Shown here in pieces: positions 16,956-44,422 of a stretch of DNA of 64,000 bases (within the stretch, counting starts at the first letter, position 1; each line of letters begins with the position of its first letter). The position numbers were made by a program, and so were the translations under genes. The notes under the pieces were generated by a model that was not told where the DNA came from, ran no database searches, and saw nothing but the letters and a program-made list of their open reading frames with translations. Origin of the DNA: an uncultured Alphaproteobacteria bacterium (GTDB taxonomy: Bacteria; Pseudomonadota; Alphaproteobacteria; Methylaequorales; Methylaequoraceae); contig CABZFH010000002.1 of NCBI GenBank assembly GCA_902524895.1, positions 74,505-138,504 on the forward strand. The letters run 5' to 3'.

Positions 16956-17882
16956 ATGAAAAAAAAAATATATATTTTCACATTTTACAAGTTTATCACT
17001 ATTTCAGATAAGTCTACTTTACAAAGAAAAATATTAGACTTAATGAAAACTAATTCTATTTTTGGAACCATTCTAATTGCTAATGAAGGAATAAATGGAA
17101 CAGTTTCAAGTCATTTAGAAAATTTAAAAAAACTTAAAGTACTGATACTAAATAAAGTATCTATTGATATACGTTTTAAAAAATACTCTTGTTCAAATTA
17201 TCCTTTCATAAGGCAAAAAGTCAAAATTAAAAATGAAATTGTAAAAATGGGTGTAAATAATATAGATGTTCAAAAATTTACTGCCCAATTTCTTGAACCT
17301 AAGGAGTGGGAAAAGTTTTTGAAAAAAAAAGATACTGTTGTTGTAGACACACGAAACACATATGAATCAGAAATTGGAAATTTTAAAAACTCTATTTCTC
17401 CAAATACCTTATCCTTTAGTGAATTTCCAAAATGGATAGAAAAAAATAAAAAGAACTTTGAAAATAAAGTTGTTGCTATGTATTGCACGGGAGGTATTCG
17501 CTGTGAAAAAGCCTCATCTTACATGATAGAACAGGGTTTCAAAAATATTTATCAGCTTAAGGGGGGTATTCTAAACTATTTGAGAAAAACAGAAAAGAAA
17601 GATAGTTTATGGAATGGAGAGTGTTTTGTTTTTGATGATAGAGTGTCGGTAAATCATTCATTAAAAAAGGGAAAATTTATACAATGTTTTGCTTGTAAAT
17701 CTGCATTGACGAAAGAAGACACTCTTTCAAAATATTATAGAAAAGGAATTTCGTGTAAAAAATGTTTTAAAAAAACAACGCAGAAACAAAAAGAGGGTTT
17801 TAGGGAACGTGTAAGACAGATAAGCATAGCGAAAAAAAGAAGAATTTCACATTTAGGGAAAAAAAATATCAATTCTCAGTAA
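16956..17882 (+). CDS. trhO: Rhodanese-domain tRNA U34 hydroxylase (UPF0176)
   Basis: GTILIANEGINGT, DTRNTYESEIG, MYCTGGIRCEKA, QLKGGILNYL, GECFVFDDRV. Confidence 0.92.
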   Translation: MKKKIYIFTFYKFITISDKSTLQRKILDLMKTNSIFGTILIANEGINGTVSSHLENLKKLKVLILNKVSIDIRFKKYSCSNYPFIRQKVKIKNEIVKMGVNNIDVQKFTAQFLEPKEWEKFLKKKDTVVVDTRNTYESEIGNFKNSISPNTLSFSEFPKWIEKNKKNFENKVVAMYCTGGIRCEKASSYMIEQGFKNIYQLKGGILNYLRKTEKKDSLWNGECFVFDDRVSVNHSLKKGKFIQCFACKSALTKEDTLSKYYRKGISCKKCFKKTTQKQKEGFRERVRQISIAKKRRISHLGKKNINSQ

Positions 17883-18948
17883 CTTTTTGAATGGATAATT
17901 TTTTCATTTTTTCAATTAATGTAGTTCTGTTTATCTTTAAACATTCTGATGCTTTAGTCACAGATCCTTTGTTTTTTTCCAAAGCTGATTCTATTAATGT
18001 TATTTCAACCTCACTCAAGTATCTTCTTAAGTCGATCTTATCCATATACTCAAACCATTTTTTATAGTGACTAGGATGGGGTAATATGTGATCTGCAGTT
18101 TCTTGAGTATCATTTTTATTTAACTTTACTAAATCGGACGTTAAATTCCATAACTCTTCTTTTTCCTCCTCATCTTGAGGTAGGCTAATTCTTATTAAAT
18201 TATCTTTAATATTTTGTGAATCAATTAGTTTATTGGGAAATAAAATTGATGCTCTTTCTATCACATTCTTTAATTCTCTAACATTTCCTGGCCAAATATA
18301 TTCTTTTAATGCTCTAAGAGCAGAATTATCAAACTTGGGTATTTGAGCTCCATAGCTTTTCAATTCTTCAATCATATGTTCAACTAGAATAGGAATATCA
18401 TCATTTCTTTCTGCAAGAGTAGGTATCTCAATGGGAAAAACATTAATTCTATAAAACAAATCTGCTCTAAAACTTCCCTCCTCAATTTTTTGTTCTATAT
18501 TTTGATGGGTTGCGCAAACTAGACGTAAATCTAAGTTAATTTCTTTTTTTCCACCTACCCTTTGTATTTTTTTTGTTTCTATAGCTCTTAATAGTTTGGC
18601 TTGAAGAGTCATTGGCATATCGCCAATCTCGTCTAAAAATAATGTACCAAAATCAGAGAGTTCAAACCTCCCTTGTCTTTGAGAATCTGCACCAGTAAAA
18701 GCACCCTTTTCATGACCAAAAAGTTCGGATTCCAAAAGTTCAGACGGAATTGCAGCACAATTTACATTTACAAGTTGCCCTTTTCTTTTGGAACTGTAAT
18801 GGATTGCACGTGCTACAACGTCTTTTCCACAACCAGTTTCCCCTCTTAATAAAACTGTTGATGGTGACAAAGAAACCATTGAGACTAACTTTTTTAATTG
18901 TTTAGTTGCCTCACAATCTCCTTTTATAATATCTTCAATTTTATCCAT
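17869..18948 (-). CDS. fleQ: Sigma54 enhancer-binding protein, FleQ/FlrA-like, lacking an N-terminal sensory domain
   Basis: GETGCGKD, ESELFGHEKGAFTGA, LFLDEIGD, WPGNVREL; FleQ-type HTH (DLRRYLSEVE...INRTTLIEKMKK). ATG at 18948. Confidence 0.85.
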   Translation of the reverse strand: MDKIEDIIKGDCEATKQLKKLVSMVSLSPSTVLLRGETGCGKDVVARAIHYSSKRKGQLVNVNCAAIPSELLESELFGHEKGAFTGADSQRQGRFELSDFGTLFLDEIGDMPMTLQAKLLRAIETKKIQRVGGKKEINLDLRLVCATHQNIEQKIEEGSFRADLFYRINVFPIEIPTLAERNDDIPILVEHMIEELKSYGAQIPKFDNSALRALKEYIWPGNVRELKNVIERASILFPNKLIDSQNIKDNLIRISLPQDEEEKEELWNLTSDLVKLNKNDTQETADHILPHPSHYKKWFEYMDKIDLRRYLSEVEITLIESALEKNKGSVTKASECLKINRTTLIEKMKKLSIQKVTEN

Positions 18949-18984
18949 ACGTAGTGTCAAAAATTTGCTATATTCAGCTATTAA

Positions 18985-19006
18985 TATTGTCAGAATCCTG
19001 ACAATA
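18985..19006. promoter_or_regulatory. FleQ-type enhancer box (GTCA-N6-TGAC inside a perfect 9-bp inverted repeat)
   Basis: TATTGTCAG-AATC-CTGACAATA, about 80 bp upstream of the fleT sigma54 motif. Confidence 0.75.
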
Positions 19007-19033
19007 AGCAAATTTTAAAAAAAAATTTTACTC

Positions 19034-19046
19034 TAAGCTATTGTTT
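19034..19046 (-). promoter_or_regulatory. Possible IHF site
   Basis: AAACAA-TAGC-TTA, one mismatch to WATCAR-N4-TTR, between enhancer and promoter. Confidence 0.35.
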
Positions 19047-19086: not shown

Positions 19087-19102
19087 TGGCCACGTTTTTG
19101 CT
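19087..19102 (+). promoter_or_regulatory. Sigma54 -24/-12 promoter of the fleT-fliEFGHIJ operon
   Basis: TGGCCACGTTTTTGCT (GG-N10-GC). Confidence 0.8.
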
Positions 19103-19136: not shown

Positions 19137-20285
19137 ATGAAGGACATAATAATAATTGAAGAATCTTTCCAGAATGCAAAAAATTTAAATGATTTTTTAT
19201 GCAATAGAAAGATTAATAGTCAACTCCAAAAAATAAATGATTTAAAAAAAATCAACTTTCCAAAGTCTGTTTTAATAGGTTCTGAAGGATTAGAAACAAT
19301 GGTTGGTGGAAAAAATAATCTATTTAAACTTTCAAGATCTATAGGTAGTACTAAAATTATAATTCTGAAATCTAAATCTCGAGAGTATAAAATTGAATCG
19401 GAATTGGGTGGAGCCTATAGTAAATATTATTTCCCTAATTTTGATGAATCGATTTATGAATTGTTAATAAATAAAATCTCAGATCAAAAATTTTCATTCG
19501 CTGATCCTAAAACTCATCAATTAATTTATCTAGCAAAAAAAGTTGCTGAAACTGATGTAACTGTTTTTATTCATGGCCCTACAGGAACAGGTAAAGAAGT
19601 TGTATCAAGTTTTATTCATAAAGAATCTAAAAGAAATGAAAAACCCTTCGTTGCTGTAAATTGTGCGGCAATACCTGAGAATATGCTTGAAGCTATGCTT
19701 TTTGGACATGAAAAAGGAGCTTTTACTGGAGCCTCAACTGCTAATAAAGGTATTTTTCGTGCAGCAGATTCAGGAACTCTTCTACTTGATGAAATTTCTG
19801 AAATGCCTTTATCTCTGCAAGCTAAATTGTTGAGGGTTTTACAAGAAAAGAAAGTAACACCAATTGGTAGTCATAGGGATATTTCAGTTGACGTAAGAGT
19901 TATTGCAACAACAAATAGAGATATGGTTAATGAAGTTAAAGAAAAAAAATTTAGAGAAGATCTTTTTTACAGACTGAATGTATTCCCCATTGAGACAACC
20001 AACTTATTTGAAAGACCTGGTGATATAATTCCAATTAGTATTACACTTTTAAAAAGACATGTCGAAAATGGTCAGCAAATACCTTTTCTGACGAAAGAAA
20101 CTCAGGATCTAATAAGAAATTATACTTGGCCAGGAAATGTTAGAGAATTAGAAAATGTTCTTCAGAGAGCATTAGTCCTATCGAATAAAAAGGTTATAAA
20201 TAAAAATGATATTATGATAGACGATATGCTTTACAAAAGTAACACTGAATCAAATAAATTATATAAACAAGCAGCACAAGGATAA
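19137..20285 (+). CDS. fleT: Sigma54 activator without a C-terminal HTH, FleT-like
   Basis: HGPTGTGKE, GHEKGAFTGA, LLDEISE, WPGNVRELEN; ends soon after the AAA+ domain; first gene of the fliE operon. Confidence 0.75.
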   Translation: MKDIIIIEESFQNAKNLNDFLCNRKINSQLQKINDLKKINFPKSVLIGSEGLETMVGGKNNLFKLSRSIGSTKIIILKSKSREYKIESELGGAYSKYYFPNFDESIYELLINKISDQKFSFADPKTHQLIYLAKKVAETDVTVFIHGPTGTGKEVVSSFIHKESKRNEKPFVAVNCAAIPENMLEAMLFGHEKGAFTGASTANKGIFRAADSGTLLLDEISEMPLSLQAKLLRVLQEKKVTPIGSHRDISVDVRVIATTNRDMVNEVKEKKFREDLFYRLNVFPIETTNLFERPGDIIPISITLLKRHVENGQQIPFLTKETQDLIRNYTWPGNVRELENVLQRALVLSNKKVINKNDIMIDDMLYKSNTESNKLYKQAAQG

Positions 20286-20289
20286 AAAA

Positions 20290-20631
20290 ATGGTAAAACC
20301 AAGAATAACAAACCTAACACCAAAAATTGTAGATACACAAAACACAGTTAAAGATCTTCAACAAAAAATTCTTAAGCAGACAAAGGAAACACTTGGCAAC
20401 CAAAACGTTTCAGAGAGTTTTTTAAGAAATTTATCTGAGGCCATACAGAACGTTTCAGATACTCAAAAAAAAAGTGCAGAATTAACTAAAAATTTTGAAT
20501 TGGGTATTGAAAATGACTTAACAAAAGTAATGATACAAAAGCAACTATCAAGCTTAGGTTTTCAAATGACTCTGAATGTAAGAAATAAAGTATTAAGTGC
20601 ATATAAAGATATAATGAATATGCCTGTTTAA
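20290..20631 (+). CDS. fliE: Flagellar hook-basal body protein FliE
   Basis: C-terminal FQMTLNVRNKVLSAYKDIMNMPV. Confidence 0.95.
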   Translation: MVKPRITNLTPKIVDTQNTVKDLQQKILKQTKETLGNQNVSESFLRNLSEAIQNVSDTQKKSAELTKNFELGIENDLTKVMIQKQLSSLGFQMTLNVRNKVLSAYKDIMNMPV

Positions 20632-20651
20632 TTAATTAATGGAAATAAAAA

Positions 20652-22370
20652 ATGGCAGAACAAGTACAAACTACAGACATAAAATCAACAAATACAACAA
20701 CTGGCTCTGGAATGTTAGCTCGAGCTGGTAATGCAATTGAACAAGTCAGAAGATTCTCAAATGAACCAGCAATCCAAAGATCAATACCAGTAATGATTAC
20801 ACTTTTTGTAATTTTTATTGGTATCGTTTTCTTTTTAATGTTTAAAGAATCACCGAGAACAACTTTATTTTCCTCGCTACCAGAAAGTGAAAAGTCGAGA
20901 GTTGTAGAAGTTCTCAGAAATAATGGCATCGATGTTTCGATTGATCCCTCAACAGGAGAAGTTCTTGTTCCATCTCCAGAATATTATGAAGCAAAAATGA
21001 AACTTGCAGCCGAAGGTCTTCCTAGCTCAATTCCTCAGGGTTATGATTTGCTTGAAGAAATTCCAATGGGCACAAGCAGATCTGTTGAATTTATGAAAAT
21101 GAAACAAACACAAGAAATTGAATTATCTCGATCTATTAATCAGATATCAAATATTCTCGGGGCGAGAGTACATCTAGCTATTCCCGAAAAGTCCGTATTT
21201 GTCAGGGAAACGGCTCCTCCAACAGCTTCTGTTTTTGTAAAATTAGCAGAAGGGAGAGTTCTTTCAAAGGAACAAGTAAGATCAATAGTTCATATTGTTT
21301 CATCATCAATTCCATACATGTCGTCTGATAACGTTACCGTGGTAGATCAATACGGTGCTTTACTCTCAAAACCAGAGAATGATGTCGATTCAGCATTAAC
21401 TGAAAAACAACTGAATCATCGACTTAAAATAGAGTCTTTATACAGAGAGAGGATCCTATCGTTAGTGACGCCAATAGTAGGGCCTGGTAATATTACTGCG
21501 CAGGTTAATATTGAAATGGATTACACAAATACATCTACTACTGAAGAAATTGTTGATCCAGAAAGTATAGCTACTCGAAGTGAGCAAAACAGCACTGATG
21601 AATCCACTGATCGACCAGCCAGAGGTGTTCCGGGTGCTGTTGCAAACCAAGCTCCACTAGCAGCTGAACTAGGATTAGATTCTCCAGAACAAGGACAACC
21701 AGCAGAATTTAAGCAAAGATCAACAAGTAATGTTCGAAATTATGAGGTTAGCAAAAAGGTAAATACTACTATAAAAGCTATAGGAAATATTCAGAAAGTA
21801 AAAACTGCTGTCCTTGTAAAAAATAAAATTGTAGAAACACCTGAAGGATTAGTATCTCAACCCATAAGCGACGAAGACAAAGATAAAATTTCATCTTTAG
21901 TAAAAGAAGCAGTGGGATTTGATACTGATAGAGGTGATTCAATAGTAGTTACCAGTGGAGATTTTATTGACGAAATTGATGTTGTGACCACTAAATGGTA
22001 TGAGGAAGCTTGGTTTCAAAATATGGTCGGACAGTTATCAACAGTTTTAATACTTGCTATTATAACTTTTGGTGCACTTAAGCCTTTATTAAATAGAATT
22101 TTGGTTCCATCAGGAGGTCTTTCTGATGGTGTGGTTACAGATTCAGATTTAGAGAGTGATCAAGAAGAGGAGGTAGAAGTTCAAGAGGGTGAATCTTTAG
22201 AAGATATAAAGGCAAAATTAAAGCCTAAAAAGTCTTCAATTTCTCCTGAAATGCTAGATACCGCAAATACTTATGATGATAAAGTAGCAGTTGTTAGAAT
22301 GATTGTAGGAGACGAAGCTGGAAAAATTTCAAACGTTTTTAGACAATTACTTCAAAAAGATTCAGATTAA
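20652..22370 (+). CDS. fliF: Flagellar MS-ring protein FliF
   Basis: Two TMs, GYDLLE...GTS, EIELSRSI, ARVHLAIP, VPGAVANQ, RNYEV, GFDTDRGD. Confidence 0.97.
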   Translation: MAEQVQTTDIKSTNTTTGSGMLARAGNAIEQVRRFSNEPAIQRSIPVMITLFVIFIGIVFFLMFKESPRTTLFSSLPESEKSRVVEVLRNNGIDVSIDPSTGEVLVPSPEYYEAKMKLAAEGLPSSIPQGYDLLEEIPMGTSRSVEFMKMKQTQEIELSRSINQISNILGARVHLAIPEKSVFVRETAPPTASVFVKLAEGRVLSKEQVRSIVHIVSSSIPYMSSDNVTVVDQYGALLSKPENDVDSALTEKQLNHRLKIESLYRERILSLVTPIVGPGNITAQVNIEMDYTNTSTTEEIVDPESIATRSEQNSTDESTDRPARGVPGAVANQAPLAAELGLDSPEQGQPAEFKQRSTSNVRNYEVSKKVNTTIKAIGNIQKVKTAVLVKNKIVETPEGLVSQPISDEDKDKISSLVKEAVGFDTDRGDSIVVTSGDFIDEIDVVTTKWYEEAWFQNMVGQLSTVLILAIITFGALKPLLNRILVPSGGLSDGVVTDSDLESDQEEEVEVQEGESLEDIKAKLKPKKSSISPEMLDTANTYDDKVAVVRMIVGDEAGKISNVFRQLLQKDSD

Positions 22371-22390
22371 TGTAATATTAAGGAAAGAAT

Positions 22391-23431
22391 ATGGCAGAAC
22401 AAGTAGATCAAAATGAAGAAGAATTAACGGCTTACGAAAAGTTATCAAATACGCAAAAATGTGCAATTTTAATGATGCTTTTGGGTGAAGATGAAGCGGC
22501 AGAAATTTTAAAAAATTTAGGTCCTAAAGAAGTTCAACAATTAGGAAAAGAGATGTATACTGTCCAAGGATTAGATCAGGATACTGTTAACCAAGTTTTA
22601 GACGAATTTTTAGCTATTATCAAAACCCAAACAGACCTAGGAATGGGATCTTCGAATTATATCAGAAATGTTATGACAAAAGCACTGGGTGAGAATAAAG
22701 CTCAATCAGTTTTAGGAAGAATAACACCCACAGAAAGTGACAAACCAATTGAAATTTTGGATTGGATGGATGCTAGGTCTGTAGCAGAACTAATTTCAGA
22801 CGAACACCCTCAGATTATGTCTCTAATAATTTCTTACTTGGAAGCAGGAGTTGCTGCAGACGTTTTAGTTTTGCTGCCCGAAGAAATACAGGCTGACATA
22901 ATTCATAGAATAGCAACACTAGAAACTGTTCAACCTGACGCACTAGCAGAGCTAGAAAGGGTAATGCAGTTAAAATTTAAAACAAACACATCATTAAGGG
23001 CTTCATCCGTTGGAGGTGTGAAGGCTGCAGCTCAAATAATGAATTTCACTAAACAGAATATGGAACAAAGAATTGTGAAAAGTCTAGGTGAAAAAGATAG
23101 ACTTTTAGCTAAAGAAATTCAAGAGAGTATGTTTACATTTGATACTCTGATACTTATGGATGACCGAAGTATGCAAACATTATTAAGAAATGTTGATCAA
23201 GAAGTTTTAATTATTGCTTTAAAAGGAACAGAAGAAGACTTAAAAAAGAAGATTTTTTCATGTATGTCTCAAAGGGCTTCAGCTAATATACAGGACGAAA
23301 TGGAAGTCCTAGGTCCATTGAGACTAACAGAGGTTCAAGAGGCACAAAAAGCTATCATTAATACCGCTAGGACAATGTCTGACGAGGGATCAATCGTCTT
23401 AGCTGGAAGAGGTGGGGATGATTTTGTATGA
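22391..23431 (+). CDS. fliG: Flagellar motor switch protein FliG
   Basis: KCAILMMLLGED, EHPQ, GGVKAAA, MFTFD, GPLRLTEVQEAQ. Confidence 0.97.
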   Translation: MAEQVDQNEEELTAYEKLSNTQKCAILMMLLGEDEAAEILKNLGPKEVQQLGKEMYTVQGLDQDTVNQVLDEFLAIIKTQTDLGMGSSNYIRNVMTKALGENKAQSVLGRITPTESDKPIEILDWMDARSVAELISDEHPQIMSLIISYLEAGVAADVLVLLPEEIQADIIHRIATLETVQPDALAELERVMQLKFKTNTSLRASSVGGVKAAAQIMNFTKQNMEQRIVKSLGEKDRLLAKEIQESMFTFDTLILMDDRSMQTLLRNVDQEVLIIALKGTEEDLKKKIFSCMSQRASANIQDEMEVLGPLRLTEVQEAQKAIINTARTMSDEGSIVLAGRGGDDFV

Positions 23432-24642
23432 TACAACAACAAGAAAAAATCAAAGAAGATTCTGAGGCAAATGAATCTCCTCTTAACACTGAAGAAATTT
23501 TAAGTATTTTAAATAAAACAAAAGAATTAAATTTTCTAAAAGAAAATAAAATTTTTGAAAACTTTTCTTCAGAGTTTAGAAGCTTAAATTTAGAAGAAAT
23601 TGCAAAAAAAAATAATAGTGAATCAATCACAACTCAAAAAATTGAAAAAAATATTGATGAAAAAGTTCAAAAAGAACTTAATACATCGTTACAGGTAAAA
23701 AAGGAAAATAATTTAGAATCTGAGAAAATCATTATCGATGAAGAAGAACTAAAAAGACAAGAAAAAATTTATACACAAGAACAGCATGATAAACTAGTTA
23801 ATGATGCTAAAGAAAAAAGTTTTAAAGAAGGAATTCAACAAGGCTTTGAGCAAGGAGAAAAAAATATCAAAGATGAGTTACAAAAAGGAGAGGAAGCTCA
23901 GGCATTAGCACTTAAAAACACTATTGATAATTTGTTTTATGTGGCGCCGAAATTTTTAGAGAAATTAAATCTAACTATAAACGAATCTATCAGAGACATT
24001 TGCAATCAAATTTTAGGATATAAAATATCTGAAATGCCAAAACAATTTTTAGAAAAAATTAATAATTTAGTTTCATCAATAGAAAGTTCATCAAATAGAA
24101 TTGTAGTATTTTTAAATGTAGAAGACCAAAAAGTTCTCAACGAATTTTTGAAAAGTAATAAGACTCTTGCTGATGTCACTTTTAAAATTGATGAAACACT
24201 TCAAAGAGGAGATTTAATAATAAAATCAGGTGGTATTGAAATAAATGATATTTTATCAAAAAAGGTTGATTTAATATCTGACTCAAATATAGATAAAAAT
24301 CTTAAAGAGTTAGCAAATGAAAATTCTGCTAAAATAGAAAATGCTAAAATCAATAATGATGATCAGGATCTTGAAGTTAAAATTGAAGCTAAGAATGATA
24401 AAATTCAACAAAGAAAAGAAGATATCCAAAGTAAATTAAAAACTGAATTTATTGAAAATTCAAATATTCTTTCAGACCCCAAACATTCTGAAAAAACTAA
24501 TGAAGACAGTAATTTTAAGGAAAAACTTTCTGATAAAATTGATGAAATGGGCGAAAAGACACAAAAACAAGAATTAGAGGAAGAAAAGTCTCTGAACGAA
24601 ATTAATGCATCACAAAAAAATGATGATAAATTAACCAATTAA
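23428..24642 (+). CDS. fliH: FliH with long N- and C-terminal charged extensions
   Basis: GxxxG repeats (KEGIQQGFEQGE), DETLQRGDLII; lies between fliG and fliI. Confidence 0.82.
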   Translation: MIQQQEKIKEDSEANESPLNTEEILSILNKTKELNFLKENKIFENFSSEFRSLNLEEIAKKNNSESITTQKIEKNIDEKVQKELNTSLQVKKENNLESEKIIIDEEELKRQEKIYTQEQHDKLVNDAKEKSFKEGIQQGFEQGEKNIKDELQKGEEAQALALKNTIDNLFYVAPKFLEKLNLTINESIRDICNQILGYKISEMPKQFLEKINNLVSSIESSSNRIVVFLNVEDQKVLNEFLKSNKTLADVTFKIDETLQRGDLIIKSGGIEINDILSKKVDLISDSNIDKNLKELANENSAKIENAKINNDDQDLEVKIEAKNDKIQQRKEDIQSKLKTEFIENSNILSDPKHSEKTNEDSNFKEKLSDKIDEMGEKTQKQELEEEKSLNEINASQKNDDKLTN

Positions 24643-24646
24643 TAAA

Positions 24647-25966
24647 ATGTCTTTAATTATACAAAAAATACAACACAATATTCAGAATTACAAAACTAAT
24701 GATGACGTAATTTACAAAGGAAAAGTATCGAAATTTGACGGAAAAATTGTCGAATGTGATGGTTTTCCAGTTCCTATTGGTACGATCTGTAAGATTGAAA
24801 GTAACGATGACAAAACTGTTACTGGTGAGATTATTGGTTTTAGAGATAACAAAAACCTTTTGGCCGTTCATAATCAAAATGCAAACATTATAGCAGGAGC
24901 AATTGTTGAAGTTATTGATTCAGGCGTAAATATAGAAGTTGGAGAAAATTTATTAGGAAGAGTAATTGATGCCTTCGGAAACCAAATAGATGGGAAAGAT
25001 TTGATAGTTGGAAACTCAAAATGGCCTATTAATGGAAAAAATATTAATCCTATGAATAGAAAGCCTATAAATGAACCAATAGATGTAGGGATTAAAGCAA
25101 TAAATTCTTTATTAACAGTTGGAAGAGGACAAAGAATTGGTATTATTGCTGGTTCTGGAGTCGGTAAATCAGTACTTTTGGGAATGATGAGTAGATTTAC
25201 AAATGCTGACATAGTTGTTGTAGCTTTAATTGGTGAAAGAGGTAGAGAAGTAGGGAGTTTTGTTAATCAAATTTTTAATGATAGTGCCAAAAAAAAAACT
25301 TCAATAGTTGCTGTTCCAGCAGACATGTCTCCCCTACTAAGAATTAGAGGAGCACAAAGAGCTACCTCGATAGCAGAGTATTTTAGATCAAAAGGTAAGA
25401 ATGTACTTTTAATAATGGATTCTTTGACGAGAATTGCACACGCAAAAAGAGAGGTGGGTCTGGCTCTGGGAGAACAACCTACATCAAAAGGTTATCCACC
25501 TTCAGTTATCTCAATGCTACCAAATTTAATTGAAAGAACTGGGGCTGGCAGCAAAAATGAAGGTTCTGTTACCGCTTTTTATACTATACTAGCTGATTCA
25601 GATGATACTAACGATCCGGTTGTTGATACTGCGCGTGCTATTCTTGATGGACATATAGTATTATCAAGAGAACATGCGCAAATGGGAATTTTCCCAGCAA
25701 TTGATATCAATCAGTCATTAAGTAGAGTTATGAATTCAATTGTAGACAAGAAACATAAAGACAAGGCAAATTTCATTAAAAAGCTTTATTCATTATATAT
25801 GGAAAATAGAGAACTAATTCTGATGGGTGGATATACATCAGGTCAGAATGAGGATATTGACAAAGCGCTCAATAATTGGCCTAAGATTTGCAATTTAATA
25901 AAGCAAGCAGAGGACGAACGAACAAATTTCAATGACAGTCTTAACAGTATGAATAATATAAATTAA
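24647..25966 (+). CDS. fliI: Flagellar export ATPase FliI
   Basis: AGSGVGKS, LIGERGREV, MDSLTR, KGYPPSV, ILDGHIVLSR. Confidence 0.97.
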   Translation: MSLIIQKIQHNIQNYKTNDDVIYKGKVSKFDGKIVECDGFPVPIGTICKIESNDDKTVTGEIIGFRDNKNLLAVHNQNANIIAGAIVEVIDSGVNIEVGENLLGRVIDAFGNQIDGKDLIVGNSKWPINGKNINPMNRKPINEPIDVGIKAINSLLTVGRGQRIGIIAGSGVGKSVLLGMMSRFTNADIVVVALIGERGREVGSFVNQIFNDSAKKKTSIVAVPADMSPLLRIRGAQRATSIAEYFRSKGKNVLLIMDSLTRIAHAKREVGLALGEQPTSKGYPPSVISMLPNLIERTGAGSKNEGSVTAFYTILADSDDTNDPVVDTARAILDGHIVLSREHAQMGIFPAIDINQSLSRVMNSIVDKKHKDKANFIKKLYSLYMENRELILMGGYTSGQNEDIDKALNNWPKICNLIKQAEDERTNFNDSLNSMNNIN

Positions 25967-26374
25967 ATGAACAGCAAAAAATTTAATATTTTATTAAAAC
26001 TTAAAAAACTTAAAAAAAACAAATCCCTCAGTAGTCTCACTTTCTTAATTAAAGAAAAAAAAAAACTCTCAAAAATTAGTGAAACATTAGAAGAAATGCT
26101 AAAAATTTCAAATTATCCAAAAAACGAGATTTTGAGTACAGGTTTGTTGAAACAAATTTCAAATTATCAAGAAAAATTACAAAAAAAATTGGAAACTTCA
26201 AATAATAGAAAAAAATATCTTTCATCTGAAATTTCAACAAATCTTAAACATATTTCTGAATTAAATAAGCAGACAGAGATAATTAAAGAAAAAATTTTTG
26301 AGCTTGAAAAAGAGCAAGCTAATTTAAAAGAAAAAAATGCTGAAATAAATATTTTTAATAAATCATCGATTTAA
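25967..26374 (+). CDS. fliJ: Putative FliJ (coiled coil)
   Basis: 135-aa predicted coiled coil directly after fliI; assigned mainly by position. Confidence 0.65.
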   Translation: MNSKKFNILLKLKKLKKNKSLSSLTFLIKEKKKLSKISETLEEMLKISNYPKNEILSTGLLKQISNYQEKLQKKLETSNNRKKYLSSEISTNLKHISELNKQTEIIKEKIFELEKEQANLKEKNAEINIFNKSSI

Positions 26375-26386: not shown

Positions 26387-26402
26387 TGGCATTGGATTTG
26401 CA
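26387..26402 (+). promoter_or_regulatory. Sigma54 promoter of fliKLMN
   Basis: TGGCATTGGATTTGCA (GG-N10-GC). Confidence 0.8.
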
Positions 26403-27746: not shown

Positions 27747-27773
27747 ATTTATAGAATAAACTAAGGAGATAAG

Positions 27774-29417: not shown

Positions 29418-29431
29418 ACTAGGAGAGAAAA

Positions 29432-35241: not shown

Positions 35242-35247
35242 TAAGTT

Positions 35248-35844
35248 ATGGCCGAACAATACTCTATTCAAGCTGAAACTCTAATGAAAGCTGCTGTTGA
35301 AGATTACTTAGAAATCATAAAAACAGTCCAGTCTTCCAATGCAAATATGGCTGTTATTAAATCTGTCAAGGTTACAATTAATGGAAAACCAAGAAGATTA
35401 GTAGATATTGGAGACCTAAGAACAGGAGAAAATGATAATAAACTTCAGGTCTTAGTTTTTAATACAGATCATATTGAATTGCTTGTTGATCAAATTAATG
35501 AAGCGGGTTTTGAGACTAATGTTGATGGTCAATTTGTTAATATTGATGTGCCTGATCCAACTTTTAAACAACTTATGGAGGTAGTTGACGATCTTCAAAG
35601 GAAAAAAAACTCCGCACTTGGAAGACTTACAAAAGCCAAATCAGAAGCCACAACCAGGGCTCGAACCGCTGTTGAAAATGAGTTTATTGAGCAAGCAGTA
35701 GCGAGTCAGGCCTCTAAAAAATGTGATGTTTTTTTTGGACAGTATTCTGACGAAATTAATTTACATACAACGACAAAAATTAAAGAAATACTCGGAGATG
35801 AATTTTACGCAAAGTTCGAAGAAGAACAAGCTATGTTTGATTAA
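35248..35844 (+). CDS. Divergent ribosome-recycling-factor (RRF) fold protein, not the housekeeping Frr
   Basis: Manual alignment to E. coli Frr holds along the whole length, but the IRTGRA, TEERR and RNVRR motifs are replaced. Confidence 0.75.
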   Translation: MAEQYSIQAETLMKAAVEDYLEIIKTVQSSNANMAVIKSVKVTINGKPRRLVDIGDLRTGENDNKLQVLVFNTDHIELLVDQINEAGFETNVDGQFVNIDVPDPTFKQLMEVVDDLQRKKNSALGRLTKAKSEATTRARTAVENEFIEQAVASQASKKCDVFFGQYSDEINLHTTTKIKEILGDEFYAKFEEEQAMFD

Positions 35845-35846: not shown

Positions 35847-36542
35847 TTATGCCTTAATACTTAAAGAATTTTTAACTTTTGCTGTATCTTTGTTTGTATT
35901 GTAAAAACTTCGTATTTGAGAAAAATTAAACATTTCTAATCTTCTCACTTTATCTGAATCTTCTTCAAAGTTTTTCTTTGGGTAGTTGAATTCCAATATA
36001 CGACCATTTTTCTTAAAAACTTTTGAATTTTGATGATTACTTTCAAAGCTTTTCGTTTCGGGAAAAATATTTCTTAACTCTTCTTTACTATTATTTTCTT
36101 GAACTTCTTGGGTAGACAATTTATTAGTTTGAGTGATTTTTTTTTTATCATTTAAATTTGCAACTTCTGTATTTTCTTTTTCTTTCCAAATTTTACTAAT
36201 TCCAGTAAACTCTAAAAATAATTCTGTCGGTGTACTGTCAAATAATTTATTAAAAATCCAGTTACCAACCCCAGCTATTGCACCTATTGGCCCTCCATAG
36301 AGAAAGCCTCCTAACCCGTTTTGAACCATATCTCTATCTGAATCCTTGTTTTCAGAATTAATGCTGGAATATATACCGCTAATTAATGGCAAATTTTGCA
36401 AAGGATTGATTGCCCCTTTAATCCATTTCAAAAAACTAAAGGTTGAGTCTTCATTATTTTCTTTTAAATTTTTTTTGCTTAATGAAATTTTTTCATTATC
36501 AAGTTTTTTAGAATGGTAAAATGGACTCTTTTCTATAAACAT
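35847..36542 (-). CDS. Conserved-looking alphaproteobacterial hypothetical protein
   Basis: INPLQNLPLISGIY...GGFLYGGPIGAIAG motif; starts 6 bp downstream of motB. Confidence 0.65.
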   Translation of the reverse strand: MFIEKSPFYHSKKLDNEKISLSKKNLKENNEDSTFSFLKWIKGAINPLQNLPLISGIYSSINSENKDSDRDMVQNGLGGFLYGGPIGAIAGVGNWIFNKLFDSTPTELFLEFTGISKIWKEKENTEVANLNDKKKITQTNKLSTQEVQENNSKEELRNIFPETKSFESNHQNSKVFKKNGRILEFNYPKKNFEEDSDKVRRLEMFNFSQIRSFYNTNKDTAKVKNSLSIKA

Positions 36543-36548
36543 TTTTCT

Positions 36549-37727
36549 TTAATAATTTATTTCAATTTCTATTCTTCTGTTTTTTTCTCTACCTTCTGAA
36601 GTGTCATTTGAACCTAATGGTTGCGTTTCACCATAGCTAATTGCCTTCATTCTTTTTGGTTGAAGTTTACCTGTAGATGATAATTCCTGAACAACAGATG
36701 AAGATCTAGCCGCTGCTAAATCCCAGTTATCTCTATATATTGATCCAAATATTAATGGTGTATCATCAGTATGACCTGACACTAAAATTTCACTTTTACC
36801 TTTTTTATTGAGGTCGGCAATTTTTGCCATAATTTTCTTAGCTTTAGATGTTAATTCGGCAGAGCCAGATTTAAACGCACCACCTGAACCCACTGTTATG
36901 ATTACTTTATCTTCATCTCTGTCAACATTAATCAAGCCTTCTCCAATTTCTTTTCTAAGAGCTATTTTAAATTTATCTTCTGCTATTTGAGCTTTTTTTT
37001 CTTCTTCTTTAGAAATGTCTGGAGATTCTCCAATATTGTTTCCATCTGAAGATTCAGATTCTAGCTTTCCTTTACTGGCTGCAGCTGTCGCTAATTGAGC
37101 AAGTTTCTGTTCTAAGCCACCAAACAAAACTTCTGATTCTGATTTTCCAGACGCAGACTTTACTGTTTCTATTGAGTTAAGAGTTTCTTGCAGTAAATTT
37201 GGTAAATCTTTTTCCTCAGCTTCAAGCGGAGTGAAATTTACAATTACTTTATCTGCTAATACCTCAACCTCAATATCACCCCTAGCAATAGCATCTTTTA
37301 TATTTTGTGCTAATTCTGTGGCATCCTCGTTTTGTCCATCATCTTTGGTATTATCTTGAGTTTTAGTTTTAAGCTCAACATTCTTTTGATCAGTTTCAGT
37401 GGTCTGCTGTTTTAAGTTTTCTTGCACGGCCGGCGTTGGATTAGGACTAAAACTTAACGATAATAATGTTGTCCCTTTAGGTTGTTCAACAACTGGAATT
37501 ATCCTTTGAATACCAAATGCATTTTTCATGCTTCCACTAATTTGCTTGAATTTAGGAACATTAAATTCTGCGAAAGAAAGAATTAAGACGAAAAATGCCA
37601 TCAACAATGTTGCCATATCTGCAAAAGTTGCCATCCACGCAGGGGCACCTTTTGGAGGACATTCTGGGCATTCGTGTTCCTCTTCATCTTTAGTTTCTTT
37701 TTTTTTTTCTTCTTTTTCCTCAGCCAT
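36549..37727 (-). CDS. motB: Flagellar stator B subunit (PomB/MotB-like)
   Basis: WMATFADMATLLMAFFVLILSF TM with the conserved Asp; OmpA-like domain GHTD...NWDLAAARS...NRRIEI. Confidence 0.95.
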   Translation of the reverse strand: MAEEKEEKKKETKDEEEHECPECPPKGAPAWMATFADMATLLMAFFVLILSFAEFNVPKFKQISGSMKNAFGIQRIIPVVEQPKGTTLLSLSFSPNPTPAVQENLKQQTTETDQKNVELKTKTQDNTKDDGQNEDATELAQNIKDAIARGDIEVEVLADKVIVNFTPLEAEEKDLPNLLQETLNSIETVKSASGKSESEVLFGGLEQKLAQLATAAASKGKLESESSDGNNIGESPDISKEEEKKAQIAEDKFKIALRKEIGEGLINVDRDEDKVIITVGSGGAFKSGSAELTSKAKKIMAKIADLNKKGKSEILVSGHTDDTPLIFGSIYRDNWDLAAARSSSVVQELSSTGKLQPKRMKAISYGETQPLGSNDTSEGREKNRRIEIEINY

Positions 37728-37750
37728 TTATCTTTTATCTTTCCTGTAAT

Positions 37751-38518
37751 TTATGCCGCAGCCTCTATTAGTTTTTGTTTTTCTTTTGGAGGAAGATTAG
37801 CAACAAGTTGATCTTGAATGTTTCTTCCACTTTCTCCTCGAGAAATTAACTGTAAGCCGGTAATTATCATTTCTCTATAAGTCACTTCATAAGTTGTGTA
37901 GCCTTTCATTTTCACAACAATTGGCATAAAAATAGTGTTTGCAATCATAGCTCCATATAGAGTGGTCAAAAGGGCAACGGCCATTGCAGGCCCAATAGCC
38001 TTTGGGTCAGCCATGTTACCTAACATTGCTACTAATCCAACTAAAGTTCCAATCATGCCCATTGCTGGCGCAATATCAACCCAAGCTTGAGCAACTCCAG
38101 TTGATTTTGCATGTCTACCTTGCATCGCTTTTAATTCTTTTTTTAATTGTATGGTTAATTTCTCTTCATCAGCACCATCTACAAGCATCTGCAAACCACT
38201 ATCAAAAAATGGATCTGGGGTTTCTTGACCTTCAAGAGCCATCATTCCATCTTTTCTGGCTATTCCAGCGAGCTCAACTATTCTGGTGATTAATTCGTCC
38301 ATTTTTTTAATAGGCGGTTTAAAGGCTTTAGCCATAGCCCCGAATGACCCTAAGAAAAGTGGTAATGGCGCAGTATACATTACAGCGAAAAATGTTCCAC
38401 CAAAAACAATTAAAATTGAAGGTATGTCAACGTACATACCTATTCCGCCTGCAGAAACCATTGCACCTGCGATCATACCTATAGTTCCTAAAAGTCCAAT
38501 GAGTGATGCTATATCCAT
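37751..38518 (-). CDS. motA: Flagellar stator A subunit, short PomA-like type
   Basis: ARKDGMMALE, APAMGMIGTLVGLV, IGPAMAVALLTTLYG; 255 aa. Confidence 0.96.
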   Translation of the reverse strand: MDIASLIGLLGTIGMIAGAMVSAGGIGMYVDIPSILIVFGGTFFAVMYTAPLPLFLGSFGAMAKAFKPPIKKMDELITRIVELAGIARKDGMMALEGQETPDPFFDSGLQMLVDGADEEKLTIQLKKELKAMQGRHAKSTGVAQAWVDIAPAMGMIGTLVGLVAMLGNMADPKAIGPAMAVALLTTLYGAMIANTIFMPIVVKMKGYTTYEVTYREMIITGLQLISRGESGRNIQDQLVANLPPKEKQKLIEAAA

Positions 38519-38569: not shown

Positions 38570-38585
38570 TGGTATAAAAACTGCA
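38570..38585 (+). promoter_or_regulatory. Sigma54 promoter facing the DUF1566 gene
   Basis: TGGTATAAAAACTGCA (GG-N10-GC); shares its -12 GC with the motA promoter. Confidence 0.55.
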
Positions 38586-38597
38586 ACTTTGATACCA
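38582..38597 (-). promoter_or_regulatory. Sigma54 promoter of motAB
   Basis: Minus strand TGGTATCAAAGTTGCA (GG-N10-GC). Confidence 0.75.
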
Positions 38598-40008: not shown

Positions 40009-40022
40009 GTCATTTTTTTGAC
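40009..40022. promoter_or_regulatory. FleQ-type box upstream of rpoN, overlapping a possible sigma70 -35
   Basis: GTCA-TTTTTT-TGAC; TTGACG at 40018-40023 then TAGTTT after 18 bp. Confidence 0.55.
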
Positions 40023-41780: not shown

Positions 41781-42428
41781 TTAATTGAAATTTTTCTTCA
41801 AGTCTTGACTAAGTTGTTCTTTAAAGAACTGTATTTTCTCTTTGTTTTCTCGAAAAAATAATTTTTGGGACTGATTATAGGATTTAAGATTTATTTCACT
41901 TTTCTTTTTATTCTGTCGAACATATCTCCAATTTTTATGAACTTTAGTTAAATAATTTTTCATCCTTTTTGGATTTGATGAGTGATATTTAGCAATTGCT
42001 TTATTCCAACTATTATGTTTATTAAAAAGTTTCTTTAAATATAAAGCTGCCCATTCAATGTTTTTTTTTGGGTCTGAGATTTCCTCAATATTTTTAAAAT
42101 TTTTTTTATGGTATTTATAACTAATTTGCATGCAACCAATATCTATATTTTTTTGAGACTTAATTTTCTTTTCTAAAAGAACCAATAAATCTTTTTCATT
42201 TTTAAAAAAAAATGATTCGCCTGAAATATTTAGCGACCAAGGCCAGGCCACATACTTTCCACCAACTGTTCTTCCTGTCTCAGTTAAAGAAATAGCCTCT
42301 AAAAGTTTATTTGGAATTTTATGTTTTTTTTCAATATTATTAATTAATTTAGTGCAATCATAAATTGGTGAAGAATATAAAAAGCTTGTATTAAAAATTA
42401 ACAATAACAAAATAACTGTCTTAATCAT
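41781..42428 (-). CDS. Lytic transglycosylase (SLT domain), exported
   Basis: Signal peptide; AISLTETG (catalytic Glu), WPWSLN, IDIGCMQISYKYH, AIAKYHS. Confidence 0.88.
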   Translation of the reverse strand: MIKTVILLLLIFNTSFLYSSPIYDCTKLINNIEKKHKIPNKLLEAISLTETGRTVGGKYVAWPWSLNISGESFFFKNEKDLLVLLEKKIKSQKNIDIGCMQISYKYHKKNFKNIEEISDPKKNIEWAALYLKKLFNKHNSWNKAIAKYHSSNPKRMKNYLTKVHKNWRYVRQNKKKSEINLKSYNQSQKLFFRENKEKIQFFKEQLSQDLKKNFN

Positions 42429-42439
42429 CACACATTAAT

Positions 42440-42455
42440 TGCAATTCAAATGCCA
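42440..42455 (-). promoter_or_regulatory. Sigma54 promoter of the lytic transglycosylase gene
   Basis: Minus strand TGGCATTTGAATTGCA (GG-N10-GC). Confidence 0.78.
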
Positions 42456-42462
42456 GCTAAAT

Positions 42463-43773
42463 TTATTTTATGATTGAGCTACTTACTAGATTTCTTCCAA
42501 TAGAAATGAAATTGTAAGGATTTACAGATTTATTATTAACCTTTATTTCATAATGAAGATGTGCCCCTGCAACTCTTCCTGTAGCACCCATTTTTCCAAT
42601 GATATATCCTTCCTCAACATAATCACCTTTTTTGACCATCAGTTTATGCAAATGTCCGTATAAAGTAACCACACCATGTTTGTGTTTTAATTTTATAACG
42701 TTTCCAAAAGATCCATATCTTCCAGAAAATAAAACTACACCATTGGCTGATGCCCTGACTTCTTCTTGCCATGTTCCAGCCATATCTATGCCTTTGTGCA
42801 TTTGCTTTTTTTTTGTTTTAGGATGAATTCTCATACCAAAAGGGCTTGATACATAGTAATATTGCATCGGAGGTTTTAATGGAAGAAAAATCATTGCTTC
42901 TTTAAGTTTATCTAATAAGTTGAACCTGTAGGAAATCTCTTCAATTAACTCTGAATCTTTAGACTCGAATAAGTTAGAGTTTTCTAACAATTCAATGTTA
43001 GATAAATCTAAGTTGTCAGGTTTTAACTTTAGTGTTTTGAAGACATTAACTAGTTCCAAAATTTCTAGGTCAATCGTCTTGCTGAATTGAATCATCTTGG
43101 TTTTATTATTACGTGGGGCAGCAAATGGTAAAACAGGAAGATTATTATATGCATATATTTCTTCCAAACTATCATTTTTTTCTTTTATTTCTAATTTTAA
43201 AGCATTGGATTTTTTTAAAGTCTCTTCGATTGGAACCATATGAGGGTTAGCCAAACCTGAAAATTGATCAAAAATTAATTCGTCTGAAAGTTTCGATTCA
43301 TCAACAATTGAAAATTCAAAACTTTTAAAATATGATCCAACTTTTTTAAAACTATCTCTCAATCTATCGTTTAAACTATTTTTTTCTGTTTCAATGGATT
43401 CAATTTCAATAATTGAAATATTTTCATTAGTTTTTGACTCAATAACGCTTCCTGCTATGTCTTTTAAAGCCTCTACTTCAGATTCAGTGAATTGTTGTTT
43501 TTGAGTAAAATTTCCGTGTAATACTACTGCTGTATAAATATTAAGTGCACCAAAAAAGACAAATTGCATTACCTTAAAAGCTACTAAAAGTGATAATAAA
43601 AAAGCTGAAATATAGTGCTTTATATTAAAAACAATTTCTATAGGACCTCTTTTCGTAAAAAAAAGAAACCTTCTTTCTTTTAATAATTCTTGCCAATTTT
43701 TTTGTACGAATAAGTCACCGAATCTTTTACTTGATTTTAGTTTATTTTCTATATTGTCTTTTAAGGTAGTCAT
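42463..43773 (-). CDS. M23-family zinc metallopeptidase with an N-terminal TM
   Basis: SSPFGMRIHP, HKGID (HxxxD), YGHL and HLHYE (HxH). Confidence 0.92.
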   Translation of the reverse strand: MTTLKDNIENKLKSSKRFGDLFVQKNWQELLKERRFLFFTKRGPIEIVFNIKHYISAFLLSLLVAFKVMQFVFFGALNIYTAVVLHGNFTQKQQFTESEVEALKDIAGSVIESKTNENISIIEIESIETEKNSLNDRLRDSFKKVGSYFKSFEFSIVDESKLSDELIFDQFSGLANPHMVPIEETLKKSNALKLEIKEKNDSLEEIYAYNNLPVLPFAAPRNNKTKMIQFSKTIDLEILELVNVFKTLKLKPDNLDLSNIELLENSNLFESKDSELIEEISYRFNLLDKLKEAMIFLPLKPPMQYYYVSSPFGMRIHPKTKKKQMHKGIDMAGTWQEEVRASANGVVLFSGRYGSFGNVIKLKHKHGVVTLYGHLHKLMVKKGDYVEEGYIIGKMGATGRVAGAHLHYEIKVNNKSVNPYNFISIGRNLVSSSIIK

Positions 43774-44367
43774 TTATTTAAGATACAATACCACGACCAG
43801 CATAATATTTGTCATAAGTTGCATAAGCATTATAAGCAACATAAGTTTCCAAGAAATTGGATTATTTACATTTAAACTAAACTGTGGAAATGGCTGGTTC
43901 TTATTTTCTAAGTTAATATTCTTTTTATTTTCATCTACCAAATTATTAACGTGATAATCTTTGAATGTTTTACTATGGTCCTCCTTTTTTTTTGTATTAT
44001 ACTTTGATGAAAAATCTTGAGTAACATCTTCGAAAGGAGATGAAGTTGATAAAGGTTGTTTTTCAATAGTTTTTTTAAAGTTTTTTTCTTCTGAAACTTC
44101 AGTTGTATTTTTTAAATTTCTTTCTGCTGAAATTACCGTTGTATTTTTTAATCTTTCATTGCTACCTTCTACAAATAAATCATTTCGTTGTCTAGGTTGG
44201 TTACTTTCAGTTCCTAAATCTTTTTCATTATTAGTTTTTTTGATATTAGTTTTTTTTTCCGAACTTTTGATTACATTTTTATTTAAATTATCCTGATTAG
44301 GTTTATCAGTGATTTGAGTTCGCATTCTCTCAATTCGTTCTCTAATATCTACAACTTGCTCAGCCAT
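43774..44367 (-). CDS. Hypothetical low-complexity protein with a C-terminal TM anchor
   Basis: Charged, disordered-looking body; ends ISWKLMLLIMLMQLMTNIMLVVVLYLK; abuts the M23 gene. Confidence 0.7.
   Translation of the reverse strand: MAEQVVDIRERIERMRTQITDKPNQDNLNKNVIKSSEKKTNIKKTNNEKDLGTESNQPRQRNDLFVEGSNERLKNTTVISAERNLKNTTEVSEEKNFKKTIEKQPLSTSSPFEDVTQDFSSKYNTKKKEDHSKTFKDYHVNNLVDENKKNINLENKNQPFPQFSLNVNNPISWKLMLLIMLMQLMTNIMLVVVLYLK
44080..44151. repeat. Imperfect 36-bp tandem duplication in frame
   Basis: GTTGTATTTTTTAA at 44102 and 44138; encodes LKNTTVISAERN / LKNTTEVSEEKN. Confidence 0.6.
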
Positions 44368-44406
44368 TATAATCTTTCAAATATTATTCTTATTAGTTAT
44401 TAAATA

Positions 44407-44422
44407 TGCACATGTTACGCCA
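44407..44422 (-). promoter_or_regulatory. Sigma54 promoter of the hypothetical-M23 operon
   Basis: Minus strand TGGCGTAACATGTGCA (GG-N10-GC). Confidence 0.65.

Follow-up and report, generated by a model that had tools for sequence, protein, structure and literature searches.

The stretch of DNA analysed here (64,000 nt, hereafter the window, along which positions are counted unless a contig or locus is named) carries, between positions 17869 and 44367, a large flagellar gene cluster. The host is an alphaproteobacterium of TMED127/"Methylaequorales", with an assembly of 1.43 Mb in 27 contigs, a guanine-plus-cytosine (GC) content of 28-31% and a completeness of 84.5%. In a tree of the export protein FlhA, the FlhA of the single-cell genome AG-901-J22, classified as o__TMED127;f__TMED127;g__MED-G10 (Table S3, PMC12542740), falls inside the TMED127 family clade. 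Genomes that group in the tree with named Sphingomonas, Sphingopyxis and Paracoccaceae sequences are assigned to the same class as the genome of the window, which makes the host an alphaproteobacterium. The TMED127 lineage has been described as one of obligate XoxF methylotrophs that live freely, have genomes of about 1.5 Mb and are abundant in warm surface oceans, where they can make up several percent of the reads in surface metagenomes (PMC12542740). The cluster very probably supplies one half (regulation, export, switch and stator) of a complete sigma-54 polar flagellum of the Fla1 type known from Rhodobacter sphaeroides, of gamma- and betaproteobacterial ancestry, acquired horizontally before the TMED127 genera diverged, fixed across the lineage and now low in GC. 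Genes were called from a listing of open reading frames (ORFs) combined with family-profile searches (Pfam, NCBIfam), and are as follows:

17869..19011, minus strand: fleQ-like sigma-54 activator (enhancer-binding protein 1, EBP1), 380 aa; Sigma54_activat domain at 226.9 bits, AAA lid, Fis-type HTH (HTH_8 at 39.9 bits, residues 332-372)
19137..20285, plus strand: fleT-like activator (EBP2), 382 aa; Sigma54_activat at 234.8 bits and lid, no HTH; opens the fliE-J operon
20290..26374, plus strand: fliE, fliF, fliG, fliH, fliI, fliJ; MS ring, rotor and export ATPase complex
26415..29797, plus strand: fliK, fliL, fliM, fliN; Flg_hook domain of fliK at 53.6 bits, matches to FliL, fliM_switch and fliN
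29939..33291, plus strand: fliO, fliP, fliQ, fliR, flhB (export gate); fliP, fliQ and fliR above the NCBIfam cut-off, flhB at 337 bits
33260..33704, plus strand: two small overlapping genes 3' of flhB; 77 aa with two hydrophobic stretches, 72 aa with four cysteines
33701..34426, plus strand: MotF-like single-pass membrane protein, 241 aa; hydrophobic stretch at residues 50-73, long C-terminal part
34435..35844, plus strand: 268-aa membrane protein and 198-aa ribosome-recycling-factor (RRF) paralog (RRF domain at 42.7 bits); end of the operon
35847..38518, minus strand: block of a 231-aa gene without assigned function and the two stator genes
36549-37727, minus strand: motB/pomB-like stator gene; PRK08944 at 271 bits, above cut-off; MotB_plug and OmpA domains
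37751-38518, minus strand: pomA-like stator gene; PRK08990 (the PomA model) at 266 bits
40100..41551, plus strand: rpoN (sigma-54); NCBIfam PRK05932.1-3 at 512 bits, above cut-off
41781..42455, minus strand: SltF-like lytic transglycosylase, 216 aa; SLT domain at 34.4 bits
42463..44367, minus strand: M23 peptidase (Pgp3/ShyC-like) and 197-aa protein without assigned function; conserved neighbours, of uncertain membership in the flagellar system

All genes from 17869 to 44367 are colinear in three other TMED127 genera, at protein identities of 30-95% and with the ORFs of no known family included, so this is not a chance set of ORFs. The original prediction for this locus listed fleQ divergent from fleT-fliEFGHIJ, then fliKLMN, fliOPQR-flhB, a MotF-like gene, PomAB-like stators and rpoN, and the ORF and family searches found each of them in its place. 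FliE, FliF and FliG score above the NCBIfam cut-offs, the top model for FliI is FliI_clade1 (569.7 bits) and a FliH domain was detected; fliJ (25967-26374) has no family match and is assigned by position and size alone. The rpoN gene is the sole copy in the assembly (a single tblastn match genome-wide). The same prediction placed the rod, hook, flagellin, flhA and che genes outside the window, with which we agree, and called the system self-contained, which is apt for the regulators, export apparatus, switch and stator and for nothing else, the other flagellar genes lying elsewhere in the genome. The RRF paralog (35248-35844), the final gene of the fliO-flhB operon, is 62-77% identical in the three other genera, and no homologue was found in the short Rhodobacterales-type loci examined.

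In the Fla1 system, FleQ activates fleT-fliEFGHIJ, FleQ and FleT activate the next class, and rpoN2 lies in the locus; late genes are under FliA and FlgM, the accessory proteins FlgT and FlgP occur, a FlgJ without a muramidase domain works with SltF, and FlgK has 1363 residues (PMC7277832). The match to this two-activator design and gene order, noticed from the sequence at the outset, holds and extends to rpoN in the locus, FlgT and FlgP, FlgJ with an SLT enzyme, a giant FlgK and the MotF-like gene (PMC7277832, PMC9779115). In TMED127, a FleT without a DNA-binding domain heads fliEFGHIJ and FleQ has such a domain; the order runs from fleT through fliE to fliR and flhB and on to the MotF-like gene; rpoN lies within the locus; sigma-54 motifs precede the flagellar operons and a FliA/FlgM late class is present. 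FlgT and FlgP are encoded beside flhA, FlgJ of the relative G013 consists of a 102-aa Rod-binding domain alone, with a separate SLT enzyme encoded in the window, and FlgK is oversized (1697-1803 aa, as against 1363 in R. sphaeroides). The nearest position in trees of FlhA and FliI is likewise to Fla1, through Rhodobacterales Fla1-like genomes. TMED127 differs from Fla1 in having no chemotaxis genes, whereas Fla1 of R. sphaeroides is under several che operons; since this concerns the input to the motor and not the apparatus, we file the apparatus as Fla1-type. Its stator is encoded in the cluster and is PomAB-like, with Na+-site threonines, whereas the H+-driven MotAB of Fla1 is encoded elsewhere; FlgE is 1260-1550 aa long rather than 423 aa; there is one rpoN rather than four; no second (Fla2) system and no CtrA were detected; an RRF paralog lies in the operon; and the GC content is about 30%. 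TMED127 is, thus, a new host for a known kind of flagellum, with three departures common to the whole family: chemotaxis input is missing, the cluster contains a Na+-type stator, and a giant FlgE accompanies a giant FlgK.

Many of the remaining components were found outside the window. A search for rod domains revealed, 40-58 kb upstream on the contig of the window, a second flagellar cluster with flgF, fliA-flhG-flhF-flhA on the minus strand, a divergent group encoding an LPP20/FlgP-type lipoprotein, FlgT, flgA, flgM and a DUF2802 protein, and flgB, flgC, flgD, flgE and a further rod gene. The FlgT_N domain (33.9 bits, cut-off 28.8) and the LPP20 domain (33.7 bits, cut-off 25.9) adjoin flhA. 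Contig C13 carries four flagellin-type genes (517, 265, 264 and 259 aa), fliD, three fliS paralogs and a flgL truncated at the contig end. FlgI was not found in this assembly but was detected in 31 of 41 family genomes, including all nine of high quality, and in a same-genus genome. G013 (98% complete) has the series rod gene-flgH-flgI-flgJ-flgK-flgL-flagellin; the contig of the same-genus genome ends inside flgK, and the 3-kb contig C26 of the present genome is a piece of flgK. The very long, repeat-bearing flgK breaks the assembly, and the flgHIJKL gap is thus an assembly problem rather than gene loss. Of the genes that it had seemed worth seeking elsewhere in the genome, flg, fliC-type, flhA and fliA genes were found here or, for flgHIJKL, in relatives, whereas che and ctrA were not, and the lack of chemotaxis had not been foreseen. 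Contamination or mis-binning was ruled out by the housekeeping genes on the contig (dnaB, purF, der, bamB, gatCAB, ruvX), a GC content like that of the genome and the presence of the same cluster in a single-cell genome. In the filament locus (C13:6489-20186), the 517-aa flagellin gene lies behind a sigma-54 motif identical to that of fliK and the three short flagellin genes (259-265 aa) lie behind sigma-28-like motifs, with tetratricopeptide-repeat and glycosyltransferase genes interspersed among the flagellin and FliS genes.

The CheW domain, found in CheW and CheA, and the signalling domain of methyl-accepting chemotaxis proteins were each absent from all 41 family genomes, including the nine high-quality ones, in searches in which the control genomes were positive. 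Receiver-domain proteins number four or five per genome in ten family genomes (three OmpR-type and two NtrC-type, with one genome showing four), and no stand-alone receiver of the CheY kind was found among them. Without a chemotaxis pathway, swimming would be undirected. FliM (28443-29417) keeps, in four genera, an N-terminal peptide, LS(T/S)EEV(S/N)ALM(D/E)GL, which we take to resemble the CheY-P-binding peptide of enteric FliM.

A decaying relic, or a device for protein export or adhesion such as some reduced symbionts keep, would account for flagellar genes maintained without a swimming organelle, and the missing chemotaxis genes, the strong streamlining of the lineage and the silence of its describers on motility would suit such an explanation. 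It is nevertheless unlikely, because all component classes are present and intact, including the stators, four flagellins, cap, chaperones and hook and junction proteins, and the family genes for FlhA, FliI and FlgE showed no stop codons, except for one split FlhA. Conservation across genera is very high (FliG 89-95%, PomA 87-90%, FliM 79-90%), and some 65 kb, about 4% of a genome of 1.5-1.7 Mb, has been kept in some 14 genera.

The horizontal acquisition of this flagellum appears to be old. FlhA was found in 36 of the 41 family genomes, and the family-wide occurrence of FlhA and FlgI, together with the colinearity of the cluster in other genera, indicates that the acquisition predates the radiation of the family. 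The 268-aa gene and the RRF paralog are also conserved in synteny across TMED127 genera. The GC content of the cluster stretch is 0.24-0.34, as against 0.28-0.29 in the large contigs of the genome; an old acquisition adapted to low GC, as originally proposed, is thus borne out by a family-wide, colinear cluster with the GC content of its genome. Several elements of its layout recur outside the family. In the Rhodobacterales genome G416, a FleT homologue lies directly before fliE and is followed by the same order of fli genes to flhB. The arrangement of flgM-flgA-flgT-flgP divergent from flhA-flhF-flhG-fliA is common to TMED127, the AT-rich alphaproteobacterium L061 and Rhodobacterales-type loci; those loci of Sphingomonadales, Vibrio and Pseudomonas that were examined lack it. 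Downstream from flhB, orf72, the gene for the 241-aa protein and orf268 recur in four Rhodobacterales-type genomes, and rpoN adjoins this group in two of five genomes examined. The small genes at 33260-33704 are shared with Rhodobacterales-type Fla1-like clusters, and so probably belong to Fla1-type systems without having been recognised as such. Other AT-rich carriers (L061, L062 and L064, from genomes G465, G466 and G468, GC 0.31-0.37) are uncultured marine alphaproteobacteria with the same Fla1-like cluster, including the MotF-like gene, which suggests a wider spread of Fla1-type flagella among marine alphaproteobacteria than is apparent from the literature on Rhodobacteraceae.

The ancestry of the system was examined with trees of FlhA (67 sequences, LG+C20) and of FliI, which is encoded in the window (43 sequences, careful IQ-TREE analysis). 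FlhA is 72-99% identical within the family, 47-51% identical to two groups of the same class, the Sphingomonadales and a subset of the Rhodobacterales (identified through named loci), 44-46% identical to the best genomes of other classes and 36-41% identical to typical FlhA of the same class. In the FlhA tree, the family and L061 lie within the Rhodobacterales Fla1-like sequences (support 100), sister to the Sphingomonadales (100); beta- and gammaproteobacterial FlhA enclose this joint clade (97 and 99), and 11 typical alphaproteobacterial sequences form a separate, distant clade. The FliI tree agrees with this picture (100/98, 100/99, 100/99), and approximately unbiased (AU) tests on FliI rejected both a clade uniting TMED127 with the typical alphaproteobacteria (p = 1.5e-9) and one of all alphaproteobacteria (p = 0.012). 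This check of ancestry, suggested beforehand and carried out with these two trees and the AU tests, thus gave no branching with native alphaproteobacterial orthologs. Transfer from gammaproteobacteria, as first proposed, stands in that the whole group lies inside gamma- and beta-type sequences; it needs amending in that the nearest relatives are other alphaproteobacteria, so the gammaproteobacterial origin is indirect and ancient. The Sphingomonadales, as the sister clade in both trees, are likewise gamma/beta-like rather than of the native alphaproteobacterial type, but the loci examined have no flgP or flgT beside flhA, no flhF/flhG match and no MotF-like homologue.

A direct, independent capture of the cluster from a gammaproteobacterium, separate from the Rhodobacterales Fla1 lineage, would fit the in-cluster PomAB-type stators, which are nearer to those of Vibrio than to the H+-driven MotAB of R. 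sphaeroides (PMC7277832). The Vibrio polar flagellum is also similar in its sigma-54 then sigma-28 hierarchy, its flhA-flhF-flhG-fliA operon, its PomA-like stator with T158, T185 and T186, its FlgT and LPP20/FlgP-type lipoprotein, and its combination of one sigma-54-type flagellin with sigma-28-type flagellins. However, the TMED127 cluster has FleT in place of the FlrBC/FleSR two-component pair (no kinase, no receiver EBP), and TMED127 has no recognisable MotY and no che genes. Moreover, the FlhA and FliI proteins of TMED127 belong to a single alphaproteobacterial Fla1-like clade with full support, outside which Vibrio FlhA and Vibrio-like FliI branch, and FleT, the MotF-like gene, orf72/orf268 and the flgP/flgT-flhA arrangement are shared with Rhodobacterales-type clusters and did not appear in those Vibrio and Pseudomonas loci that were examined. 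No gammaproteobacterial cluster with fleT and a MotF-like gene, and sister to TMED127 alone, was found among the 80 best FlhA loci, and a separate capture therefore seems very improbable. Least credible of all is a native, vertically inherited alphaproteobacterial flagellum made to look gamma-like by AT-rich composition or fast evolution: the host is an alphaproteobacterium, as are all the nearest relatives, the amino-acid composition of TMED127 is deviant in both trees, and the Caulobacter/Fla2 kind of flagellum (CtrA/FlbD-controlled) has the same core apparatus and, in FlbD, also a sigma-54 activator, but the tree partners are GC-rich Rhodobacterales and Sphingomonadales (0.56-0.66), so that compositional attraction does not explain the grouping, the AU test speaks against a clade with typical alphaproteobacteria, the native flagellum is distant in both trees (FlhA/FliI identity of 36-41%, as against 44-52% to gamma and Fla1-like proteins) and has another accessory set, FlgT, FlgP, FlhF/FlhG, FliA/FlgM and sigma-54 control are gamma-type traits, and no CtrA-type regulator was found in the 84.5% complete assembly, whose three OmpR-type regulators, at 130-176 bits, stay below the CtrA model's cut-off of 350.

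The stator of this Fla1-type flagellum resembles that of Vibrio. The closest solved relative of its A subunit is Vibrio alginolyticus PomA (211 bits, as against 143 for MotA), and alignment to this protein shows that P151, G154, M155, T158, T185 and T186 are kept, together with R88, K89 and E96. Na+-driven stators all have three conserved threonines, of which two are replaced by alanine in H+-driven stators (PMC10374538); the retention of T158, T185 and T186 would thus point to Na+ coupling. No MotY was recognised, and there was no further OmpA-like or MotB-like match in the genome at E <= 1e-5. A 210-aa Sel1-repeat protein (46388-47020), 2 kb past the cluster, has the size and repeat class of Vibrio MotX, and gave only generic Sel1 matches in the Protein Data Bank.

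The MotF-like protein is 71-80% identical across TMED127 genera. Its homologues were found only in Fla1-like clusters of Rhodobacterales-type genomes and L061, and none in Sphingomonadaceae. A tblastn search with the gene gave no match in the fli region of G416, and a more sensitive search of that genome gave a weak match elsewhere in the flagellar contig (E 5.8e-5). We take RSP_0067 of R. sphaeroides to be motF. This gene lies directly after flhB (RSP_0066) (PMC9779115), and MotF has a mass of 24 kDa and crosses the membrane once, at residues 54-74 (PMC7277832). Going by these published properties, gene position and distribution, the 241-aa protein is likely to be the counterpart of MotF.

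The hook and junction proteins are giant. FlgE has 1547 aa here (contig C2:29048-33691; locus L010:14048-18691), and its open frames span 1262-1551 aa in every family genome with an intact gene, as against 425-445 aa in Rhodobacterales, Sphingomonadaceae and two gammaproteobacterial genomes searched, and 799 aa in a third out-of-class genome. The open frames of FlgK span 1697-1803 aa in family genomes, and the central parts of the two proteins share repeat units (HGFxTGD...YYV...FKLA). Single-sequence structure prediction of residues 730-1040 of the FlgE insert was unusable (predicted local distance difference test score, pLDDT, of 34). Examples of such genes in relatives are:

G013:C5:223375-227277: giant hook/junction gene in G013
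G013:C4 (L164:4558-9933): giant hook/junction gene in G013

The regulatory genes and their surroundings suggest how this flagellum may be controlled. The FleQ-like activator has nothing before its AAA+ core (no receiver, no FleQ N-domain), and NCBIfam EBP matches extend to the ends of the NtrC/NorR profiles. It aligns with its relatives only from residues 17-25 onward, so its true start is probably M22 at 18948. The FleT-like protein consists of a 122-aa N-terminal region without a family match, the AAA+ core and the lid, with no DNA-binding domain; over residues 1-361 it is 51% identical to the product of the gene directly 5' of fliE in G416. A domain search found no sensory domain in either activator. 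In the genome as a whole, two NtrC/NtrX-like proteins bring the number of sigma-54 activators to four, beside a single rpoN and a single stator set. Motifs of the TGG-N9-TTGC type lie 10-65 nt 5' of fleT, fliK, fliO, pomA and the SLT gene, and palindromes resembling a FleQ box precede fleT, fliO and rpoN:

18989..19002, strandless: FleQ-box-like palindrome GTCAGAATCCTGAC, about 85 nt upstream of the fleT promoter-like site
19087..19101, plus strand: sigma-54 -24/-12 promoter-like site TGGCCACGTTTTTGC, 36 nt before fleT
26387..26401, plus strand: sigma-54 promoter-like site TGGCATTGGATTTGC, before fliK; the identical 15-mer precedes the 517-aa flagellin gene on contig C13
29802..29815, strandless: FleQ-box-like palindrome GTCAAATACTTGAC, about 76 nt upstream of the fliO promoter-like site
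29891..29905, plus strand: sigma-54 promoter-like site TGGCCATGTTCTTGC, before fliO
38583..38597, minus strand: sigma-54 promoter-like site TGGTATCAAAGTTGC, before pomA
40009..40022, strandless: FleQ-box-like palindrome GTCATTTTTTTGAC, 78 nt before the rpoN start codon
42441-42455, minus strand: sigma-54 promoter-like site TGGCATTTGAATTGC, before the SltF-like gene

Loose sigma-54 motif matches number 37 in the window, as against 22 expected. When only intergenic motifs no more than 200 nt upstream of a same-strand ORF were counted across the genome, 11 of the 16 well-placed motifs fell in flagellar clusters, where they also precede flgF, the flgP operon, the flhA operon and the 517-aa flagellin gene. 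The palindrome GTCA-N6-TGAC occurs three times in the window (0.33 expected; none of 100 shuffles reached three) and only seven times in the genome; four of these seven are at such flagellar sites, the fourth between flhA and flgP. The gamma-type sigma-28 consensus ([TC]AAAG-N14-17-[GC]CCGA[TA]A) gave one irrelevant match in the genome. A looser, AT-adapted motif derived by eye, TAAA-N14-17-GTCG(A/T)T, precedes the small flagellin genes, fliD, the fliS genes and flgM. Across the genome this motif shows no enrichment (31 matches, as against about 48 in shuffles), but it is concentrated on the 20-kb contig C13, which holds six of the 31 copies. Together, the candidate sites fit the four-tier hierarchy of Fla1. 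A 61-aa ORF (41548-41733, minus strand), convergent with the end of rpoN and called as a gene on a TARA contig too (L012), is preceded by a good sigma-54 motif, TGGCACGTAAAATGC, at 41763-41777.

From homology and these motifs, the following working may be proposed. The sensor-less FleQ would bind the GTCA-N6-TGAC boxes and, with sigma-54, fire the fleT-fliEFGHIJ operon. FleQ and FleT, the latter having no DNA-binding domain, would then fire the remaining sigma-54 promoters, namely those of fliK-N, of fliO-flhB with the MotF-like gene, of pomAB and sltF, of flhA-F-G-fliA and flgP-T-A-M, and of flgF and the 517-aa flagellin gene. FliA (sigma-28), restrained by FlgM, would express the three small flagellins, fliD and fliS. 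Finally, the PomAB-type, probably Na+-driven stator would turn the rotor, with FliL, the MotF-like protein and a FlgT/FlgP ring as helpers.

Several points weigh against the picture of a complete Fla1-type flagellum drawn above. The trees are of single proteins in which TMED127 is compositionally deviant, and R. sphaeroides itself stands outside them, the link to Fla1 running through Rhodobacterales genomes and through published gene order and protein properties. The flgH, flgI, flgJ and flgK genes are missing from the assembly and are supplied from relatives and from the fragments on C13 and C26. The stator is probably Na+-driven, to judge by the three conserved threonines; the promoters and FleQ boxes are putative, being motif matches only; and motility is itself deduced from genes alone. 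The literature defining the lineage, in a full-text search, makes no mention of flagella, motility or chemotaxis, although reports elsewhere are possible. Finally, the CheY-binding-like N-terminus of FliM is unexplained by an entirely unsteered motor.

Two further observations concern the neighbourhood of the cluster. The flanks of rpoN and the SLT gene (39365-39907 and 42463-45653) encode a weak SPOR-domain protein, the M23 peptidase, the 197-aa protein and a bactofilin, which may together represent a cell-shape module retained beside the flagellar genes. A 1010-aa protein (48443-51475, minus strand) matches the phosphoenolpyruvate (PEP) carboxylase profile only partially and weakly (77.6 bits, positions 97-623 of 919), and may be a divergent PEP carboxylase of a methylotroph's serine cycle.

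Non-motility is the textbook condition of streamlined oligotrophs of the ocean, among them SAR11, OM43 and Prochlorococcus. The cluster described here widens the known range of Fla1, with its FleQ/FleT pair, MotF-like protein and small genes 3' of flhB, beyond the Rhodobacteraceae, and provides natural variants for the R. sphaeroides model system, in the form of a Na+-type stator, a giant hook and a motor without CheY input. If every genus devotes about 4% of so small a genome to a flagellum, motility has to be worthwhile, and this even in the absence of any chemotaxis system. A tentative and rather doubtful extension of this idea is that TMED127, among the most transcriptionally active of the oligotrophic surface-ocean methylotrophs, swims with a constitutively wired, sensor-less, Na+-driven flagellum without chemotaxis, in which hook and junction proteins of three to four times the usual size make for an unusually bulky or stiff hook region and the FliM peptide serves a new partner; undirected motility might then be adaptive, for example by raising encounters with methanol-releasing phytoplankton. 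The finding bears on the way in which TMED127 cells find their sources of methanol, and on models of encounters between bacteria and phytoplankton.

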